Positions 9,989 through 57,109 of a stretch of 64,000 nucleotides of DNA are shown in pieces. Made by a program: the position numbers and the translations under genes. The notes beneath the pieces are model-generated. The model saw only the letters and a program-made list of their open reading frames with translations. It made no database searches and was not told the DNA's origin. Numbering within the stretch: the stretch's first letter is position 1; each line of letters begins with the position of its first letter. The stretch is from an uncultured virus (IMG/VR IMGVR_UViG_3300037808_001064) (Duplodnaviria > Heunggongvirae > Uroviricota > Caudoviricetes): IMG/VR virus record IMGVR_UViG_3300037808_001064; one strand, given 5' to 3'.

Positions 9989-10528
9989 TCAGTGTGCCTG
10001 TGTCTCAAATTGCGCTGTGATGTCCTGTTTTTTTCCGTGATCAACCTCCCACACAAACAAACTCAAAGTGCGGCGGGCGCTCTCCACAGGCAACACCTCG
10101 TGGGAGATCTGGGAATCAAAGGAAGCCGCCATGCCTGCCTGCGGAACCAGAATCTCACCGTCCACCACCAACTCGCCACCGTCGCAGTCGTCCAGGAAAT
10201 ACACAAGGGACGCCACTCGCCGCCACGGCCGCTGTGCGTGGTGTGTTGCGTCAATATGCAGCCCCAGCGATGAACCGGGCGGCATCAAGTGCATTCCGGC
10301 CCCGTAGAAGTCGAAATCGTAGAAGGCCGTTCCTGCCGGCGGGCACTCATGGGCCAGATCACGCAGAGCCACCTTGCAGGCCTCCGGTATACGTGACGGA
10401 TCCACGCTGGCAAGTTTTCCATTTCCGTATCGGTGCCACCATTCCCAGTTGACGGGCGGGAACGCGGCCAGCGCCGCCCGGCGGATATGTTCGGGCAGGA
10501 CGTTTGAAAATATGTGTATGTTCATCAT
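9989..10528 (-). CDS. 2OG-Fe(II) oxygenase (prolyl-hydroxylase-like)
   Basis: HxD (HID), distal His (HEV), RRTLS 2OG-binding Arg, GGEL turn. Confidence 0.85.
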   Translation of the reverse strand: MMNIHIFSNVLPEHIRRAALAAFPPVNWEWWHRYGNGKLASVDPSRIPEACKVALRDLAHECPPAGTAFYDFDFYGAGMHLMPPGSSLGLHIDATHHAQRPWRRVASLVYFLDDCDGGELVVDGEILVPQAGMAASFDSQISHEVLPVESARRTLSLFVWEVDHGKKQDITAQFETQAH

Positions 10529-30056: not shown

Positions 30057-30311
30057 ATGGATACCAGCATCAGTGACAGTGAATTGTCGATAAGCGAGTT
30101 AGCTTTGTACGTCAAAAAAAGGCACAAAAAAACCGTCCGAGAACAGACCCTTTACAAGTGGATCTATCGCGGACGGCAGAATGAGCACGGCGAAGTGCGA
30201 TATCTAAGGTCTTCTCAGATGGGGTTCAGTGCCCCTCATTTTGTTCGGAAAGGTGAGATCAACGAATTCATACTTTGGCTAACTGGGGACGAACGGGACG
30301 AACGGCGGTGA
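30057..30311 (+). CDS. DUF1580-like winged-helix protein (excisionase / RDF-like)
   Basis: QTLYKWIYRG...GEVRYLRS..MG...V...EINEF pattern; convergent with the recombinase. Confidence 0.6.
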   Translation: MDTSISDSELSISELALYVKKRHKKTVREQTLYKWIYRGRQNEHGEVRYLRSSQMGFSAPHFVRKGEINEFILWLTGDERDERR

Positions 30312-31815
30312 CGATTGCCGTTTCACGATCCTCCTCCTCGACCAGCTTCAAATATGACTGATAGTCATCCCAGTGACGGGACATGTGGATCATGAACAGA
30401 TAGCGGTAGGTGGGATTGACGAGCTTCTTTTTTGCCCTTGCTTCTCGACACCGGTCCCTGAACCCTTCTTGCCCTTTGCGAGTGTATAGGGAGTTTGGAT
30501 GTTCCAGGAGGTCCGAGTTCCTTTTCATGGCTAAGAGGGGATCCCACCCGGACTTTGACATTGGAAGCCGATGTTCACGGTGTGCGCAGATGGCTTCCAT
30601 CCTCTCAAAAACCTTCACGCGTGACGGCTCCACCTTCATGTGCTCGTTGACCAACCGGCAATCCTCCAGATAATCAAGGTCCGGAACGATGTGCCGCTCA
30701 GGCTCGCCCTTCTCGTTGTTCAGTATTTTAGAGTGAATCCACTTTGGCAAATGGCGGTCAGCTTTGGGAACCAGCCCGGAATCCCACATCCACGCCAGAG
30801 TGTCGCGGACTCGACGGCGATTCTCTTCGGACTCGATCTGAGCCATCAGGACCATGATCTGCATGGAAAGACGGAATGACATGTCACCGGACTTCATCCC
30901 ACCTTCAGCCAGATGAACAATGATCCCACTATCGTGCAGGTAGTCAACGACTTCAATCATGTCTTTCACGGACCTGAACGCTCTTGCCGGCCGCAGGAAG
31001 ACAATGTGGTCGCCCCTCTTCAGCTTCTTCAGGAGCTGAGACGCTTCCGGCCTCTTGCTGAACTGGACCTTCAGTGCTGAGACTCCTTCGTCCCGAATCA
31101 TTCCACCCGGTGACGCCATGTCGGAGTACAGCCTTTCCATGTACCGATAAACAGGGCCCAGCTGCGACTCAACACTCTGCCGATCGGTTGATACCCGAAC
31201 GTACCCATAAACCTTCCCGGCCGGCAGTGGCTCTTCTTCTTTCTTCTCCGGACGAACCATGGAAGAGATGACTCGATTTGATGCGGTACTGGCCAGGGTG
31301 TTATTCAGCTTGGGTGCCCTCTTCCCGTCCGTGTCGTCCATCAGGCCGTCTTCTCTGGCAACCTGATACTCTCGCATCCGCTCACCGACGATCTCGGACT
31401 TCCACTGAGCGTAGGCAGCCATCACATGTGCCGTGAGCTTCCCGTTGGCAGTCGTGAGATCCAAAGAAGGATGCGACACAAACTTCAGGCTGATGCCGGC
31501 ACCGGTCCAGAACTCAATGTACTGCGCACACTGCCAGAGGTTTCTCCACCCGCGGTCGATCGCGTACATGATGACCGTGTCTCCGGGATTAACATGACGA
31601 ATCAGCTCCCGGCCACCAGCTCGCTGCTCAATGGGAATCTTGTAGGCCGACGCAGAGTCAACGAACACTCCGGGCTCATCGACGTTCGTTTCAGTGCCCA
31701 GATCCAGGCCTTCTCGTTTGACAAGATCCAGACAGAGTTCAGCTTGTGCTGACAGAGAACATCCATCAGACCTCTGCTTGCCGGTCGAAACTCGGCAGTA
31801 AATGTAAGTCGTCAT
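30268..31815 (-). CDS. Serine recombinase with two tandem resolvase catalytic domains
   Basis: YCRVSTGKQ...DRGWR and YVRVSTDRQ...RAFR, each followed by a long E-helix. Confidence 0.85.
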   Translation of the reverse strand: MTTYIYCRVSTGKQRSDGCSLSAQAELCLDLVKREGLDLGTETNVDEPGVFVDSASAYKIPIEQRAGGRELIRHVNPGDTVIMYAIDRGWRNLWQCAQYIEFWTGAGISLKFVSHPSLDLTTANGKLTAHVMAAYAQWKSEIVGERMREYQVAREDGLMDDTDGKRAPKLNNTLASTASNRVISSMVRPEKKEEEPLPAGKVYGYVRVSTDRQSVESQLGPVYRYMERLYSDMASPGGMIRDEGVSALKVQFSKRPEASQLLKKLKRGDHIVFLRPARAFRSVKDMIEVVDYLHDSGIIVHLAEGGMKSGDMSFRLSMQIMVLMAQIESEENRRRVRDTLAWMWDSGLVPKADRHLPKWIHSKILNNEKGEPERHIVPDLDYLEDCRLVNEHMKVEPSRVKVFERMEAICAHREHRLPMSKSGWDPLLAMKRNSDLLEHPNSLYTRKGQEGFRDRCREARAKKKLVNPTYRYLFMIHMSRHWDDYQSYLKLVEEEDRETAIVTAVRPVRPQLAKV

Positions 31816-33649: not shown

Positions 33650-33808
33650 GACCGCCACGCCTAGCCTAGCGAGTGACTGCCATGACCAACCTAGCCCCGC
33701 CCCGCCTTAACGCACCCGGCCGTGCCTCGACCGCCCAGACCTGCCATGCCTGACCGATCCTTACCGCACCATGCCCACCGAGACCGCCATGCCGTGACCG
33801 ATTATCTG
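33650..33808 (-). repeat. Short (GGY-NN)n pentamer array, 3-4 units delimited by GGCRGTC
   Basis: Plus-strand GACYGCC at 33650, 33675, 33729, 33782 separated by NN-RCC pentamers. Confidence 0.85.
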
Positions 33809-34615
33809 CTATCCGGCAAGCGGCTTGCTAGAGTCAACCAACTTGTCGGCAAGCAACTGAGCCTTGCCGCGTTTCTTCACTTCAGCCTGAAACCATCCGA
33901 GCAGTTCCTCAGTGTCGGCATCAACACACTCAGGGTTCTTGATGGCTGCGTCCTGCTGTTTCATGCCACCACTGTCAATGATGCCCTGACACTCTTCTTT
34001 GGTCGACACCTCGAACTGGCCGAAGTTGCCCTTGCCTTTCTCTTGCCGGAAATCACCGACACCAACGATGATTCCGCCATTTGAAAGCAGCTGATAGATG
34101 GACTGCTCGCTCATCTGCGGCATCACATACTGGATTGTGACAGGGATGCACCATTCCAGAAGCATTGCCCTCGTTCGCACATCCGGCGTTCTCTTCATGT
34201 CAGCCGAACGAACGATCGACATGAATACCTTCGGCACGCCATACAAATCACAAGAGTAACCCTGCACCCAAACAAGACGCCCAATCTGCGTTTTGTTTGT
34301 CCCCTTCGTTTCGAGAGCTGCCGTCATCATCGCTCCCTTCACGGCCGGCGAAGGCATTGTTAATCGCGTGGGGCCCTTGTCAGGCCGACGATCCATCGAG
34401 TTCCGGTACTCGTTCATCGGATCGTGCTTTAACGTCTGCTGACGTTCTGCCGAACTCTTCGCCCCTTTCGGGAAAAGCAACTCGTGAACCCCTTTCGCCG
34501 CCATACGATTGCGAATCAAAGGAGTCCGACCTTTGAGCCAGACAGTAATACTGCCAACTCGCAACGGTTCAACTTCAATCGCTTCCAAAACACCCTTCGC
34601 TTTCGCTTTAGCCAT
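33809..34615 (-). CDS. Stand-alone Cas7/RAMP-like protein, 268 aa
   Basis: LKGRTPLI first strand, MPSPAVKGAM helix (compare IPGSSLKGAL), RTRA...EW, C-terminal G-rich loop GVGDFRQEKGKGNFGQF. Confidence 0.7.
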   Translation of the reverse strand: MAKAKAKGVLEAIEVEPLRVGSITVWLKGRTPLIRNRMAAKGVHELLFPKGAKSSAERQQTLKHDPMNEYRNSMDRRPDKGPTRLTMPSPAVKGAMMTAALETKGTNKTQIGRLVWVQGYSCDLYGVPKVFMSIVRSADMKRTPDVRTRAMLLEWCIPVTIQYVMPQMSEQSIYQLLSNGGIIVGVGDFRQEKGKGNFGQFEVSTKEECQGIIDSGGMKQQDAAIKNPECVDADTEELLGWFQAEVKKRGKAQLLADKLVDSSKPLAG

Positions 34616-34704
34616 TACAGCTTCTCCTAAAATTGTGGGACTAAGTCCCTACTACGTGAAGGAGACACGGGAAACATTCCCGCATCAAAAAACTTGCTTC
34701 CATT

Positions 34705-34890
34705 TTAGCTGCCTTGATCAACGAGAGTTAAGTTGAACAGATCAGCCAGTTGATCAATCCTCTCCGATGACATTCCCGTTGACGTAGTCATGAACCGATG
34801 CAACGTCGTCTTTGGTATCCCAGACTCAACTGCCACTGAATTTAACGTGTACTGCTTGACGTGTTTCTTCAGAGTGTCTGTGATTGTCAT
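34705..34890 (-). CDS. Cro/XRE-like HTH regulator, 61 aa
   Basis: TLNSVAVESGIPKTTLHRF...IDQLADLF; AGGAG SD. Confidence 0.75.
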   Translation of the reverse strand: MTITDTLKKHVKQYTLNSVAVESGIPKTTLHRFMTTSTGMSSERIDQLADLFNLTLVDQGS

Positions 34891-35096
34891 GAGACAACTC
34901 CTGTGCGATCCCCATGGAAGGGCAGTAGCCGGAACATTTTGTCGCGTTTCTCAAGCCCCTGAATTCGTCCCGCTTCCTGATCGAACGCCGACCAAAACAC
35001 TGCAGAAAAGTTCATTCGATCTCGGTACTCGTCGACATCTGAAACCCGACATTCAGGGACGTAGATGCCAATCTTCGGTACTGACTTTTTGCTCAT
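34887..35096 (-). CDS. Small protein, 69 aa, possibly ribbon-helix-helix
   Basis: KIGIYVPE strand followed by NFSAVF..A helix; AAGGGG SD at the array end. Confidence 0.5.
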   Translation of the reverse strand: MSKKSVPKIGIYVPECRVSDVDEYRDRMNFSAVFWSAFDQEAGRIQGLEKRDKMFRLLPFHGDRTGVVS

Positions 35097-35100
35097 TAAA

Positions 35101-35748
35101 ATCCCCTTCCATGCCCGACCATTCCATGCCTCGCCTGTCCCAGCCTATCCATGACCGCCTTGACCACACCGCAACATGACTCACCAGACCTTGACCGGAC
35201 GCACCAAACCTGGACCGCCAAGCCTGACCTCGACTCACCGTACCTAACCGTACCTGACCATAACTTCCATGACCGCCTTGACCGACCTAGCCTATCCGAA
35301 CATTGCCTTCCCGTACCTCAACCGCCATGCCCACCGAGACCGACCCTGCCACACCTGGCCAGACCAACCGAGACCGCCAGTCCTTACCTCGCCATACCTG
35401 ACCCGAACTCGCCCTGCCCACCGAGACCGCCGAACCTGACCGTGCCATAACCAGCCATTCCACACCACACCATGACCGCCTAGCCCGACCCCGCCTCACC
35501 GGACCGCGCCGCACCTCGCCTAACCGCTTCTCACCAGGACCGCCTTGACCGACCAAGCACTGCCTAACCCTGCATTTCCAGACCAAGCCGTGACCGCCTT
35601 GACCGACCTCACCACGCCTTACCTGGACGCACCGGACCTTGACCGCCTCACCTAGACCCGCCGCCCCGTGCCTGCCCAGGACACGCCGTGCCCCGACCGC
35701 CCAGCCCGACCAATCCTAGCCTGCCCGAACCTTGCCTTCCGCGACCAA
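35101..35748 (-). repeat. Main (GGY-NN)n pentamer array, about 12 units of 49-64 nt, each ending GGCGGTC; putative guide-RNA array
   Basis: Plus-strand GACCGCC at 35153, 35213, 35271, 35320 (AACCGCC), 35372, 35425, 35474, 35538, 35592, 35641, 35695, with 8-11 NN-RCC pentamers between. Confidence 0.9.
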
Positions 35749-36201
35749 TTATTCCAGCATCGACTCAAGTGACTCTTTCACCTGTTTCAGCTTCCGCACA
35801 ACATCACTGCCAACAATGCCGGCCTTCGACACCGCTATGCCATAAACCCGACACGCATTCCCGTGCAACATCTGAAGCTCCCGCTGCATCACTGCCGACG
35901 TTTTTGCAACCCCACGCATCTTCGGAAGCGACACAAACACTGGCTCGTCATCCGTCGAGGACACGTAACGCACAACGGAACTCGTCACTTCCTCGACAAT
36001 CACCTCGAACTTGCACTTGCGAATGATCGACCGAGCCTGATCTCGCCATCGCTCGGCCGCAGCTGCATGCACATCCCAGGTGAAATCGCCATGACATGGA
36101 TGTCGATCGTCCCTCGCCGCCTCAATCAAATCTTCAGGGTCGACTCTGCCGTCAGACTCCAGCGACCTCACGGCCGCCTCCTTCTCAGTCCATGTCGCCA
36201 T
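35749..36201 (-). CDS. Conserved-looking phage protein, 150 aa, first gene of the RAMP/array operon
   Basis: GGAGG SD with ATG 36201; PEDLIEAAR...HPCH..FTWD...AA...R.QAR.IIR; stop abuts the array. Confidence 0.7.
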   Translation of the reverse strand: MATWTEKEAAVRSLESDGRVDPEDLIEAARDDRHPCHGDFTWDVHAAAAERWRDQARSIIRKCKFEVIVEEVTSSVVRYVSSTDDEPVFVSLPKMRGVAKTSAVMQRELQMLHGNACRVYGIAVSKAGIVGSDVVRKLKQVKESLESMLE

Positions 36202-36330: not shown

Positions 36331-36405
36331 TGGGATGTAGCTCAGATTGGCCAGAGTGCTCGGCTTGGACCCGAGAAGTCGCAGGTTCGAATCCTGTCAT
36401 CCCGA
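36331..36405 (+). tRNA. tRNA-Pro(TGG), CCA not encoded
   Basis: Full cloverleaf: TGGGATG/CATCCCG acceptor, CTCGG-CTTGGAC-CCGAG anticodon arm, GCAGG-TTCGAAT-CCTGT T arm, A73. Confidence 0.92.
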
Positions 36406-39031: not shown

Positions 39032-39229
39032 TCAGCCTCTCTCAGCGTCTCTGTGCGTCTCGTGGGGGTCATCTGTCGCCCGATCCGATGTTGCGGTCGT
39101 CTCTGTTCGTCGTTTCCTCTCTGCTACGTATGCTGTTAAGGCTGGGTATGTGTGACGTGGTGGTGGGATGGTTGAGGCTGCTCTGCCACTGTTGCGCGCT
39201 GCGGTCAGGTGGTAGTCGGATAGGCTCAT
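39032..39229 (-). CDS. Small early protein
   Basis: CAGGAGACCAAGACC-ATG leader. Confidence 0.5.
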   Translation of the reverse strand: MSLSDYHLTAARNSGRAASTIPPPRHTYPALTAYVAERKRRTETTATSDRATDDPHETHRDAERG

Positions 39230-39265
39230 GGTCTTGGTCTCCTGATGGTTGGTGGAAGTGAAGTG

Positions 39266-39448
39266 TTAGCGGGGAAGCTGTTTGGCTGCACCCTGTGCGC
39301 GGTAGATGGCGTTGGCGGTGATATCCCACTGTTGCCAAGTGTCGGCATTGCCTGGTGAGCGGTTTGCGATGCGCAAAGCTGCTTCAAGGTGTTTTCGGAC
39401 ACGGTCTGCGGCTATTGCCGGAAGTAGTTCTGTGGCGTCGATTCTCAT
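39266..39448 (-). CDS. Small early protein, 60 aa
   Basis: CAGGAGACCGAGACC-ATG leader. Confidence 0.65.
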   Translation of the reverse strand: MRIDATELLPAIAADRVRKHLEAALRIANRSPGNADTWQQWDITANAIYRAQGAAKQLPR

Positions 39449-39494
39449 GGTCTCGGTCTCCTGTGGTTGGTGGTTGTCGTGAGTGGTGAATAAT

Positions 39495-39740
39495 TCAGGC
39501 AAGTGCTTTTTCTGCTTCAGCCCGGACTGCTGCGAGATTGCGGTCTGCGTCGCAAGCTGCTGCTGCTGCGAGTTCTCTTGCGAATACGATAGCGGTGCGC
39601 AGTTCTTCGCGGTATGCGGCAAGTTGGGTAATGGTCACCGACGTGGAGCCGGTCGCAGAATGAAGTACGATTCTGCCGGACGGTTCGGCGTGTGGTCTCG
39701 GCAAAATGCCTGGTCTGATTACTCCGGTTTGACGGGCCAT
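39495..39740 (-). CDS. Small early protein, 81 aa
   Basis: CAGGAGACCGAGACC-ATG leader. Confidence 0.65.
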   Translation of the reverse strand: MARQTGVIRPGILPRPHAEPSGRIVLHSATGSTSVTITQLAAYREELRTAIVFARELAAAAACDADRNLAAVRAEAEKALA

Positions 39741-39839
39741 GGTCTCGGTCTCCTGTGGTCAAGGTTTGGGAAGGGTTCACAGGTCCCGCCCAGCGGTGTT
39801 ATGCGCTGAGCGGGTGCTGAGAGTCCTCTGTGGTGATGT

Positions 39840-40424
39840 CTACGGCACCGCCTGAATTGGTGGTGGTGGTTGGTTGGTGTAGTGGTCTGCGAGTGCTTCA
39901 AGCTGTTTGGATACGTCGTATTCTGCGGTTCGGGTGTAGCCGTTTCCGTCGTGTTCTCCGGCGTTTACTTCTGATGCAATGGCAATGGCGGTGGCGGGTT
40001 GGGAAAGGATCCAGACAATCTGTCCGGGAGTGCACTTCTCACAGAAGCGTGGCGAGCCAGCCACAGTCATTGATCCGGCGGTGGCGGGGCGTGGTTCTCC
40101 TTTCGTGAATCCTTTCCCCGATTTTTTGTATAGGTCGGTATCGTTAAATCCTTTTGAGGCTTTGATGGGAAGTGCAGCATATGCTGCTGCTGCTGCTGCA
40201 AGTCGGGCGTCTTCCTCGACGACGTAAGCGGCGGTTTCTGCTTCAAGGTCCTGACGAGCTTTCACCCACTTGCAAACCAAGTTGAACGGGACGATGTTTT
40301 TTGCTGCTGCGATCGTGAAGGCGTCTGCTCCTGCTCCAATCAGGTGGTTGTACTGTTCCCGACTCCAATCCTTGTCAGTTGCTGTCGTGTCGATTGCTGC
40401 GGGTGCTGTTGTGTTCTTCGTCAT
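39840..40424 (-). CDS. Early protein, 194 aa
   Basis: GGAGACCGAGACC-ATG leader. Confidence 0.7.
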   Translation of the reverse strand: MTKNTTAPAAIDTTATDKDWSREQYNHLIGAGADAFTIAAAKNIVPFNLVCKWVKARQDLEAETAAYVVEEDARLAAAAAAYAALPIKASKGFNDTDLYKKSGKGFTKGEPRPATAGSMTVAGSPRFCEKCTPGQIVWILSQPATAIAIASEVNAGEHDGNGYTRTAEYDVSKQLEALADHYTNQPPPPIQAVP

Positions 40425-40527
40425 GGTCTCGGTCTCCGATGTGCCGATTGTTCGGCGGGTTTGGTTTGGCGGTCGTCCAGAATGGTTGGCCTGCCAGTCG
40501 TTTAAACGTTCCCTACGTATACGCGGT

Positions 40528-54249: not shown

Positions 54250-56004
54250 CTATTGAATACTTTTCATCAGTGATCGGATCTCGCTCAGGCCCGTGAATAT
54301 ACCACTATCAGGAGAAAACATTCCACTGCAAACGCCAAGTAGTTCTCCAGCAGGCGTGAAGAGCCCCCCTCCGGAGCGACCAGTGGCGTGCCGGCCGGAA
54401 CAGACGAGAGAAGATGGGCCAGTGAACTTATTGATACTCAGGAGCTTACAGTCTGAGCGGATCTGGGGCCCAGCGTGATCAAATCCGTACGAAACGAGCG
54501 GAGATCCTGTCGGCGGAACCTCATTGGCCAATGGAGCATACGCGATAAATGTGGTGTTCCCGGTCACTTTAAGAATCGCCAAGTCTGTTGGTGTCGGCAA
54601 GAGGGCCACCATCTCAGCTGGGTATTCTGTCCCGGTGTTCGGGTCGTAGACTGACAGTGTTTTGTGTTTTCGGAACACATGAGCACAGGTCAGGATGTAG
54701 GCGACACCACCTTCTGACTTGACCACCGTCCCACTGCCAGCGTCACCGTTGCCATCTGAGGACCTGGCATGAACTCGGACGGACACCATAGACGCACTCA
54801 TGGTCTTTTGACTGTCTTGTGGATTCAGGTCTCGCTCAATGCCTGCAAGAAGGCGATTGAATACCGACGCTACCCTGTACCCCCACTGGTATTTAGGAGA
54901 CGCGACTGTGGGCCCATCATGCAAGATGTGGTATTCACCGTCACGAAGAACGCCCACCTGGAATGCTGGGTACAACCCCACCCCGTTTTTTCTGCCTTCG
55001 CGTGTTCCGCGGTCAATCACTTCGTATGTCATTTTTGATCGCTCATTTGCCGTCCACTGCCGGCATGCAGCACACCCATCGAAGTGGTAGAACAGAAGGA
55101 CAGGCGTCTCGTGAGCCTTTACCTCTTCGGTCAAGACAGGGGCAGACACGGTCATCGGCACGAACGTGTGGAACGATCTCTTGACTGGCTGGTCAGCTGG
55201 GTCGTCCGTCCATAGCCACACCTCGTCGTGCTCCACCATGTCGAGCCCTTCGATCTCGTGATAAGGCGACACCACCTTGGATAGGCCGGCGAACTTGCCC
55301 GCGACCATCAGCTCTGTCAGCAGCTCCGGGTACAAGTAGGCCAGACCGATCGAGATGTGATACTTGCTGGGGTCAACGTCCCGAACGTCTCGATGCTGGA
55401 CGATGACGGATCCAGCTGCGATCCGGCCGGCGACGACGGCCTCCTGAACATGCTGTCTGGCCTTCTTGACCATGTCGATGTCGATCTCGAACCCATAGGC
55501 ACGCTTGGCACCGGACTCAACGGCGCGAATCGACCACTCAGCGATACCACAACCAAACTCACCGACTGTGTCATAAGGGCCGATGTCGGCAATGCGGATG
55601 CCGGTGTCCATATGGCCGGAGGGTGTGGGGGATTGGCCGACTTCTTTGAGTGCGGCCTTTATCGCGTCAGCTGCCTTCACTGTGGCAGAATGCCGGGCTG
55701 CTGACTTCATGGACTTCCCCTGTGACATGTACTCAGCCTTCCATCCATAAATGTTGTCACACATGTTGCAGGGACAGCGAACGAACCTCTTCCGCCGGCC
55801 GACACCTTTGTTTCTCCCACGACTGTACGACTCAAGGTCGATGTTGGCCGTCTTGTTGTTCTCCGGCCACTTCTGCATCCGAGCAATGCGACCATCCGGT
55901 GTCCGAATCTGACTCCGTGAGTGTGGCATGGTGACAAGAATAAGGCCCAAGATTAACGTGAGCCAGATTCCAAGTGCGACTATGCTCCGTTTTCTCTCGT
56001 TCAT
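54250..56004 (-). CDS. Membrane-anchored fusion: SAM-methyltransferase-like, thioredoxin-like and trypsin-like serine protease domains
   Basis: N-terminal TM; EFGCG...GFEID; CAAC; LTCAHV, DLAIL, GRSGGGLF catalytic triad. Confidence 0.8.
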   Translation of the reverse strand: MNERKRSIVALGIWLTLILGLILVTMPHSRSQIRTPDGRIARMQKWPENNKTANIDLESYSRGRNKGVGRRKRFVRCPCNMCDNIYGWKAEYMSQGKSMKSAARHSATVKAADAIKAALKEVGQSPTPSGHMDTGIRIADIGPYDTVGEFGCGIAEWSIRAVESGAKRAYGFEIDIDMVKKARQHVQEAVVAGRIAAGSVIVQHRDVRDVDPSKYHISIGLAYLYPELLTELMVAGKFAGLSKVVSPYHEIEGLDMVEHDEVWLWTDDPADQPVKRSFHTFVPMTVSAPVLTEEVKAHETPVLLFYHFDGCAACRQWTANERSKMTYEVIDRGTREGRKNGVGLYPAFQVGVLRDGEYHILHDGPTVASPKYQWGYRVASVFNRLLAGIERDLNPQDSQKTMSASMVSVRVHARSSDGNGDAGSGTVVKSEGGVAYILTCAHVFRKHKTLSVYDPNTGTEYPAEMVALLPTPTDLAILKVTGNTTFIAYAPLANEVPPTGSPLVSYGFDHAGPQIRSDCKLLSINKFTGPSSLVCSGRHATGRSGGGLFTPAGELLGVCSGMFSPDSGIFTGLSEIRSLMKSIQ

Positions 56005-56210
56005 TACTCTCGTTTCCATGTGTGAGTTTTCGCGGCTTCTTTACCGTTGTCCGCAATCCCTTGCCCAATCAGGTAAGCCATTATTGTGTTGACGATGTTA
56101 GTGGCCTGATCCTCAGTGAGACCGAGGCCATCCGAAAAGATGATGATAAGGGCAGCGGTCAAGGCCGCGTAGAACTTCTTTGAGTTGAAAAGCTGCTTGA
56201 AGATGTTCAT
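56004..56210 (-). CDS. Two-TM holin-like protein, 68 aa
   Basis: SKKFYAAL...AYLIGQGIAD. Confidence 0.7.
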   Translation of the reverse strand: MNIFKQLFNSKKFYAALTAALIIIFSDGLGLTEDQATNIVNTIMAYLIGQGIADNGKEAAKTHTWKRE

Positions 56211-56212
56211 CG

Positions 56213-57109
56213 TTACTGCTCCGTGTATTTGCCTTTACCAGTCCACACAGCGTGCCGGTTCCCGATTGTCATTGTCCCGTTCACATCGAACAGGCCGTCA
56301 TCATCCGGTGGCGTCGGTTCATCCGGATCCGGTGGTGTCAGACCCAACGGTGGGCCATAGTATTTCTGAGTCCGCTTCTTGTCTGCCGGCTGCAGTCGCG
56401 TGACGTTCGGGTTCATGAACGGACGCATGATAGACGTGCCGGAGTTCGCGTGTGAGAAGCCCATCGTGTGGCCGGTCTCATGAATAATGGTCCCGATCAA
56501 ATAATCGATCGACCAGTTCCGCCTGTCGTATTTTTGCCAGTGGGAATGTACTCGCCGGCTGCCGTTCGACAATAGTGCAATTGCCAGTGTGCTTCCGCCG
56601 AGTCTCTCCGACCACGTCGGGACATGTGCGGCATCGTAGTCGTCGATCATCACCAGGTTCACACCACATGTGTCGTTCCAGTTCTGCAGAGCAGTGTCCC
56701 ACGCCTTCTTTGTGTCCTCCTCATCGAGGCCCTGAAGAGCGCGAAAGCGAAGTGCGAAGGTGACTGGGGTTTCCGGGTTCGGCCATGTGCGAGTGCCGTT
56801 GGAGATGTTCAGCTCTTCGGACTCATTACTGGCCAGGTAGTCCGGGCAGTCGCAGACCCTCTCGTGTCCGTGAGAGTTCCTGCGAAACATCAGACTGTCG
56901 ACGGTGAACCGGCCAAACTCCTGGTCCTCCTCCAGCTCAGCCGTCATCTGATACGAGCTGACTGCCCGTTTGAATATCCGCGAGTTGATGTCCAACTCTT
57001 GCACCTTAAACCACGATGATCTTCCATCGTACTCAGAGTGAAAGTGCCCGAGCTTGTACAGCTCTCGCCTGGATACCTCTTCTTTCGGGGTCCATACGTG
57101 CGCCACCAT
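56213..57109 (-). CDS. Matrixin (M10) metalloprotease with a prodomain
   Basis: HETGHTMGFSH, Met-turn SIMRP, cysteine-switch-like CDCPD. Confidence 0.88.
   Translation of the reverse strand: MVAHVWTPKEEVSRRELYKLGHFHSEYDGRSSWFKVQELDINSRIFKRAVSSYQMTAELEEDQEFGRFTVDSLMFRRNSHGHERVCDCPDYLASNESEELNISNGTRTWPNPETPVTFALRFRALQGLDEEDTKKAWDTALQNWNDTCGVNLVMIDDYDAAHVPTWSERLGGSTLAIALLSNGSRRVHSHWQKYDRRNWSIDYLIGTIIHETGHTMGFSHANSGTSIMRPFMNPNVTRLQPADKKRTQKYYGPPLGLTPPDPDEPTPPDDDGLFDVNGTMTIGNRHAVWTGKGKYTEQ

Follow-up and report, generated by a model that had tools for sequence, protein, structure and literature searches.

A phage Vipr locus with staggered guide arrays and predicted anti-satellite targets

Why would a tailed phage carry a single protein with the hallmarks of a CRISPR effector backbone and no CRISPR system around it? 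The gene that raises this question occupies positions 33809..34615 on the minus strand (268 aa plus stop; the plus frame across the same positions is interrupted by stops) of a 64,000-nucleotide stretch of DNA, here called the window, which belongs to a 73.4-kb virus record (IMG/VR IMGVR_UViG_3300037808_001064). The phage carries genes for a large terminase, a major head protein and a serine recombinase, and a tRNA-Pro. As the original prediction had it, the gene lies outside any cas operon: a Pfam scan found no cas gene among the 57 ORFs within the first 64000 bases, and no 23-mer is repeated in the 73-kb record, so that no CRISPR array is seen. An Rfam search near the cassette returned the tRNA-Pro only. 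Our answer, which we hold with a probability of roughly 0.88, is that the protein, a Vipr, likely binds and silences matching DNA in competing mobile elements, guided by RNAs from the arrays that flank its gene.

The motifs first noticed in the ORF, said to follow the order typical of Cas7/Csm3/Cmr4-type RAMPs, are all present: TPL (residues 31-33), P88-x-P-A-VKGAM (last element at 92-96), R147-T-R149...W155 and a C-terminal loop, G185-x-G187-D-F-R190...G194-x-G196-N-FG199-x-F201. Most of these positions are invariant or nearly so in an alignment of 118 sequences, made up of the query and 117 of the 120 listed matches; at E 0.001 or better the ORF has 1525 homologues. Pfam assigned it to no family. 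In an AlphaFold model (mean pLDDT 83.5), the RAMP fold, with a single RRM core, a thumb and a G-loop, spans about residues 17-207, and helices extend the protein beyond it at the C-terminus (about 207-250). A structural search with this model listed only CRISPR RAMP chains in its first 21 rows, the best being Csm3-type chains (Z 8.8, rmsd 3.7, 150 residues aligned), and Foldseek likewise placed Csm3 chains at the top (E 1e-5), so the best matches are RAMPs and not unrelated folds. Identity to class 1 RAMP backbones is 9-17% at Z 8-9, and the middling Z of about 8 is offset by the presence of a single superfamily in the list, in concordance with the sequence motifs. Vipr chains were absent from both fold-search lists; the Foldseek library predates the posting of Vipr structures.

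Sequence profiles are more specific. When a profile of the homologues was compared with PDB sequences, the only match was the Vipr of phage SUSP1 (36pp; E 2.7e-4). The ORF (P0001) matches PHROG 4652 at E 3.6e-13 over model positions 5-192, the same family is matched by SUSP1 Vipr at E 1.4e-96, and a direct hhalign comparison of the two proteins gives a probability of 94.7. The residues D177, W178, R179 and R138, with which SUSP1 Vipr grips GGY, correspond to D188, F189, R190 and R149; all 114 homologues keep both arginines and 113 keep D188. The remaining GGY-binding residue of SUSP1, H17, has N36 as its equivalent. Of the DNA-clamping residues of SUSP1, K88 corresponds to a conserved R113, whereas K33, R39 and K82, which are important there, fall in poorly aligned stretches where no conserved residue is matched. 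The helical extension after residue 207 is found in 113 of the 114 homologues and is missing from the Vipr proteins of Gordonia phage Pipp and of SUSP1. Of the named relatives, the nearest (59-75% identity) come from genome bins of Planctomycetaceae and Thermoguttaceae. Remote homologues of vipr and of its accessory gene occur together in the Gordonia phages Pipp and UmaThurman (L132:2486-3795), which may offer a cultured test system. On this sequence evidence the ORF is a member of the Vipr family; the RAMP assignment holds for the fold, but the protein is a Vipr and not a Cas7, Csm3 or Cmr4 subunit. The identity of the nearest solved relative also bears on an alternative raised at the outset, that a lone Cas7-like subunit acts as an anti-CRISPR decoy, poisoning the class 1 complexes of the host or soaking up crRNA. 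Its RAMP fold, its location in a phage and the lack of a cas operon would suit such a role, but the relative in question is a Vipr and not a Cas7.

Two arrays of five-base units accompany the gene on its own strand. The upstream array (35106..35745, minus) holds guides g1-g12, each of 9-12 units, and the downstream array (about 33650-33800, minus) holds two guides, d1 (33736-33784, minus) and d2 (33682-33731, minus), and short segments. At a lag of five bases there are 45 pairs of GGY in 35107-35746, where shuffled sequence averages 4.4 (maximum 13 in 1000 shuffles), and 12 in 33650-33800, where it averages 1.1 (maximum 6). Over 133 units, position 1 is G in 98%, position 2 is G in 75% or T in 24% and position 3 is a pyrimidine in 89%, while positions 4-5 (NN) are near uniform. 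A GGCG unit of 4 nt recurs after every 9-12 units and moves the register by one base, giving GGCGGT joints (11 upstream, 3 downstream), and the guides are joined without tails of their own. The joints presumably mark the boundaries of single guides. In the clade (115 loci), a 4-nt unit terminates 617 of 654 runs, and at least two such runs occur at 93 loci. Same-strand arrays are found at 67 of 80 related viral loci and opposite-strand arrays at none of the 80. As far as the legend of fig. S18 in the discovery preprint defines it (10.64898/2026.04.26.720920), a staggered array runs on without a break while its guides are displaced from one another by one base, and the window arrays fit this published layout in their unit pattern.

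The make-up of the guides themselves also shows some regularity. Guides g7, g8 and d1 (35327-35427 and 33736-33784) open alike, with a first unit followed by a 4-nt second unit; a one-base-short second unit is seen in several guides, and the same-opening pattern also occurs between loci L006 and L009. In a further locus, two neighbouring guides are near-identical with few units changed (L002:6440-6537), which hints that guides may arise by tandem duplication and drift.

In published VIPR, each subunit hides GGY and presents NN, so that the target is read by twos with every third base skipped. Whether this code applies to the clade was examined by comparing guides of at least 9 units (215 of 263 unique guides) with related loci whose arrays were masked. 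Matches at 90% or better were obtained by 7 of the 215 guides with a skip of 1, by none with skips of 0, 2 or 3, and by 0-1 guides in five unit shuffles. The contrast was weaker with a second parser (398 guides; 7 matches with skip 1, 2 with skip 0, 1 with skip 2 and 0 with skip 3). Seven guides of sister phages lie on terminase genes (PHROG 5989), on the sense strand and with the skip at the third codon base, and all seven fit another phage better than their own (for example 20 vs 16 of 20, and 23 vs 19 of 24). These matches show apparent kin warfare on terminase with self-avoidance among the sister phages, and, as judged from sequence matches, the one-base-skip code, with the skip at the wobble position, holds in the clade. 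No link between the skipped target base and the preceding triplet was evident on inspection. One guide (L022:5773) is a 20/20 match to the thumb-coding part of the vipr of another element (L111).

Three guides of the window phage match genes of other mobile elements. Guide g5 (35481..35540, minus) had a single match among 401 genomes from the class to which a Planctomycetaceae bin belongs; this match is codon-aligned, pairs at 23 of 24 positions and has its only mismatch in a synonymous arginine codon. The matched gene encodes an HTH_17 excisionase, whose homologues, read in that register, match at 22, 20 and 19 of 24. Under an independent-base model 0.003 such matches are expected, a figure that may be about four times higher because a reversed-pattern control gave 10 matches at up to 3 mismatches where 2.3 were expected. 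Since this control outnumbers the guide itself (10 vs 1), the match carries weight through its lone mismatch and the surroundings of the gene. The gene lies in an element that adjoins a tRNA-Arg and encodes an integrase, a ParB-like protein, a D5-type primase and a capsid protein. None of 15 ORFs there gave a match to a large terminase, a portal or a tail gene, and the layout resembles that of capsid-forming PICI satellites.

Guide d2 gave 6 matches in 301 genomes, against 1 for its control. It matches the DTRANGGY motif of Prim-Pol genes at 18/20; five of the six matches lie in frame in this one motif, and four adjoin related HTH_17 genes. The short stretches examined around the d2 targets showed no integrase. 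Guide g2 (35648..35697, minus) matches at 18/20, codon-aligned, a motif of a primase family in integrated elements. Its total of 16 matches is uninformative, being at the level of the control (13); five of the 16 fall in frame within a single motif of the family, and matches that share a conserved motif depend on one another. Across 58 loci selected for such elements, g2 sites scoring at least 80% numbered 16 with a skip of 1 and 0-1 with other skips, six of the 16 coming from loci picked by g2 itself and one being counted twice. The family was matched in 73 of the 301 genomes. One member lies in an 8-kb element with a tRNA-Met, an integrase, an excisionase homologue (L194) and a capsid gene, and one genome (G541) has matches to g5, d2 and g2. 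The genes matched by g5 and g2 were seen in small tRNA-integrated, capsid-encoding elements that look like phage satellites. Elements of this kind, which are inserted at tRNA genes and carry genes for an integrase, an excisionase, a primase and a capsid, occur in planctomycete-class genomes (G162:C1:2357600-2373980 and G559:C15:180-8510) and possibly represent an undescribed satellite family; the G162 copy contains an insertion-sequence-like ORF, and no att repeat was found for it. In the phage itself, homologues of the matched excisionase, the Prim-Pol and the g2 primase were not detected, no relatives of the excisionase were found in viral contigs, and its full-length guides gave no match to its own genome above wrong-skip controls (best 15/20 and 17/24).

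Since three guides match excision and replication genes of parasitic elements, the phage likely uses Vipr to silence its competitors. The original prediction, in which the RAMP serves the neighbouring arrays as effector backbone with a subunit to every five nucleotides, is borne out to the extent that array linkage, skip code and natural target matches agree with one another and with the published mechanism, fold and family of VIPR. The decoy reading fares differently. It leaves the tight same-strand linkage to pentamer arrays without a part to play; the arrays do not resemble crRNAs, and under a specific code their variable bases fit competing mobile-element DNA, so that we find it unsupported and regard it as extremely unlikely.

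For the remaining guides the searches were largely negative. No target was found for 11 of the 14 guides, four guides having been searched in at least 301 genomes. Guide g11 had no match in 301 genomes; d1, g4, g7, g12 and g10 had none better than 3 mismatches in five genomes, and g1, g3, g6, g8 and g9 were compared with related loci only. Several partial matches were set aside: the 26 matches of the g11 core (best 19/22, no target accepted), the single match of the g5 core in viral contigs (19/24 once extended), the 11 matches of the g12 core (best 18/20, in unrelated contexts) and the four matches of g10 in metagenome contigs, which lie in AT-rich unrelated DNA and never match the first unit in full.

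Could the cassette then be a passenger, real by descent and inactive in this phage? The many guides for which no target was found would agree with decay, as would several units that are degenerate or one base short and two unrelated small ORFs that separate the upstream array from the leader (69 aa and a 61-aa HTH; 34705..35096, minus). These ORFs have weak HTH matches and no homologue in 80 related loci, and are probably passengers themselves. On the other side, vipr and the accessory gene are intact with their residues conserved, similar degeneracy is general throughout the clade, and three guides still match conserved targets. We consider decay very unlikely and retain an active silencing system as the preferred reading.

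By analogy with SUSP1, Vipr would coat short RNAs from both flanking arrays, with a subunit on each five-base repeat, and the complex would thread double-stranded DNA and block transcription. RNA expression, filament assembly and repression rather than cutting are all carried over from that phage. According to the satellite preprint, silencing of the excision recombinase keeps the satellite in the chromosome (10.64898/2026.10.15.759431); the targets predicted here (excisionase and primases) would affect the same early satellite steps, and the phage may benefit in the same way if satellites are kept from excising and replicating. With the same guides and code, the complex might instead act mainly on RNA or, together with the accessory protein, cut DNA or block its replication. 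SUSP1 Vipr is reported to pair with ssRNA as well (10.64898/2026.04.26.720927), and the additional C-terminal helices and the different accessory protein leave room for another activity. However, all confident mobile-gene guides are in mRNA sense and so find their complement in the DNA template strand and not in the transcript, which favours DNA targeting. We therefore rate action on RNA or by cutting as improbable.

The accessory gene (35749..36201, minus; 150 aa, PHROG 15946) has a homologue at 64 of the 80 related loci. Its product differs from the Vap1 of SUSP1 (PHROG 5926, no profile match) and is modelled as a small N-terminal domain with a C-terminal helical hairpin. A fold search with this model, a weak test, returned generic helical hairpins only and no nuclease match, which also speaks against cutting. 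We infer that the protein may help silencing. A PADLOC match (E 2e-4, 56 residues) was set aside as functional evidence; PADLOC gave no match for the Vipr ORF. In this clade the additional helices of Vipr and the clade's own accessory protein may serve the tail-less staggered arrays.

A second, more tentative layer of the system may be self-regulation. A leader of two hairpins (34616..34692, minus) precedes vipr; the hairpins are common to 14 aligned close loci, and 9 of 12 predicted pairs have changed on both sides. In L002 this twin-hairpin leader is duplicated (L002:4615-4690 and L002:4920-5001), the second copy standing before an inserted ORF, which suggests that the leader belongs to gene starts and not to the array end. 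In the downstream array, a mini-segment (33654..33677, minus) has fixed NN values in 12 of 17 close loci. Under the skip-1 rule, 5-8 of its 8 positions are complementary to the linker between the hairpins (site 34647-34657), with 7/8 in the window phage. The sole locus with an altered third pair, the window phage, has a matching linker change, as does the sole locus with an altered fourth pair (L010); the covariation has a permutation p of 0.008 among loci that are related. The site was picked out by visual inspection, the complementary stretch is short, and the core is mismatched in 5 of 12 loci. It is a possibility that we still doubt that a mini-guide of 4-5 units sends Vipr to the leader site and so imposes negative feedback on Vipr supply in the clade. 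Unlike the other guides, the mini-guide would pair with the sense strand, possibly with mRNA. The discovery preprint found no self-targeting match at 80% in the clades tested (10.64898/2026.04.26.720920), and the available text of the satellite preprint makes no mention of autoregulation (10.64898/2026.10.15.759431). Neither leader nor mini-guide appears in the main text of the discovery preprint, whose figures, type tables and data files may list the clade, type or leader.

The targets of the phage's guides support a planctomycete host, which we infer for this phage. Four public sequencing runs hold at least half of the words of the locus; all are seawater metagenomes, and two are possibly the source. 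Their contigs contain no array variants, and no run with RNA is listed as holding the locus. Beyond the cassette, the phage and related cassette-bearing loci have almost no genes in common, so the cassette appears mobile between phage lineages. No relatives of the phage's terminase were found in viral contigs or in five records. The genome has further features of its own. A tRNA-Pro(TGG) (36331-36405, plus) sits just upstream of the cassette and on the other strand, and a 515-aa serine recombinase with two tandem Resolvase domains (30268-31815, minus) lies beside the head genes. Genes for a trypsin-like peptidase, an M10 metallopeptidase and a 2OG-Fe(II) oxygenase are found at 54250-57109 and 9989-10528 (minus). 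A short repeat at 39171-39753 and 40403-40437 recurs where several small ORFs begin, at intervals of 219-684 bases; its copies end in the same 15-17 bases and may be a common ribosome-binding or early-gene element.

VIPR was described in 2026 and has been tested mainly on two type II systems. The locus is, by its gene, arrays and guide matches, a VIPR member with staggered arrays and predicted natural, anti-satellite targets. It shares with the published staggered VIPR, as far as that is described, a phage-borne vipr with one accessory gene, GGY/NN pentamer arrays, a one-base register shift, the skip-1 code and codon-aligned targets in other mobile elements. The predicted targets here are planctomycete, and none such is mentioned in the main text of the discovery preprint, where RNA sequencing confirms the ribozyme and single-guide layouts and not the staggered one (10.64898/2026.04.26.720920). 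With the type II system of SUSP1 the locus shares PHROG 4652, the D/aromatic/R of the G-loop, the thumb arginine and, as reported for SUSP1 and predicted here, the targeting of the excision machinery of a satellite-like element (10.64898/2026.10.15.759431). In contrast to SUSP1, the Vipr here has 268 aa rather than 195, with the helical extension; guides abut without tails whereas each SUSP1 guide is followed by a structured tail; the accessory families differ, position 2 of the unit is T in about a quarter of cases, and g5 matches an HTH excisionase where SUSP1 targets the recombinase. The class 1 CRISPR backbones (Csm3, Cmr4, Cas7 and type VII Cas7) have the same RRM core, thumb and G-loop, but here there is neither cas operon nor CRISPR array and the guide is non-contiguous. 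CreR and crRNA-like regulators of cas promoters (10.1101/2023.03.10.532045; 10.1101/2023.03.03.530964) resemble the mini-segment in being short guides with limited complementarity to the upstream region of the effector; as described there, they are CRISPR-derived and tested, whereas the mini-segment consists of VIPR-type units and its role is suggested by covariation only. If true, the mini-guide would be the VIPR counterpart of CreR-type cas autorepression. The directly joined guides, if they work, would provide a compact multiplex format, and the predicted targets would extend anti-satellite targeting by VIPR to marine phages with probable planctomycete hosts.
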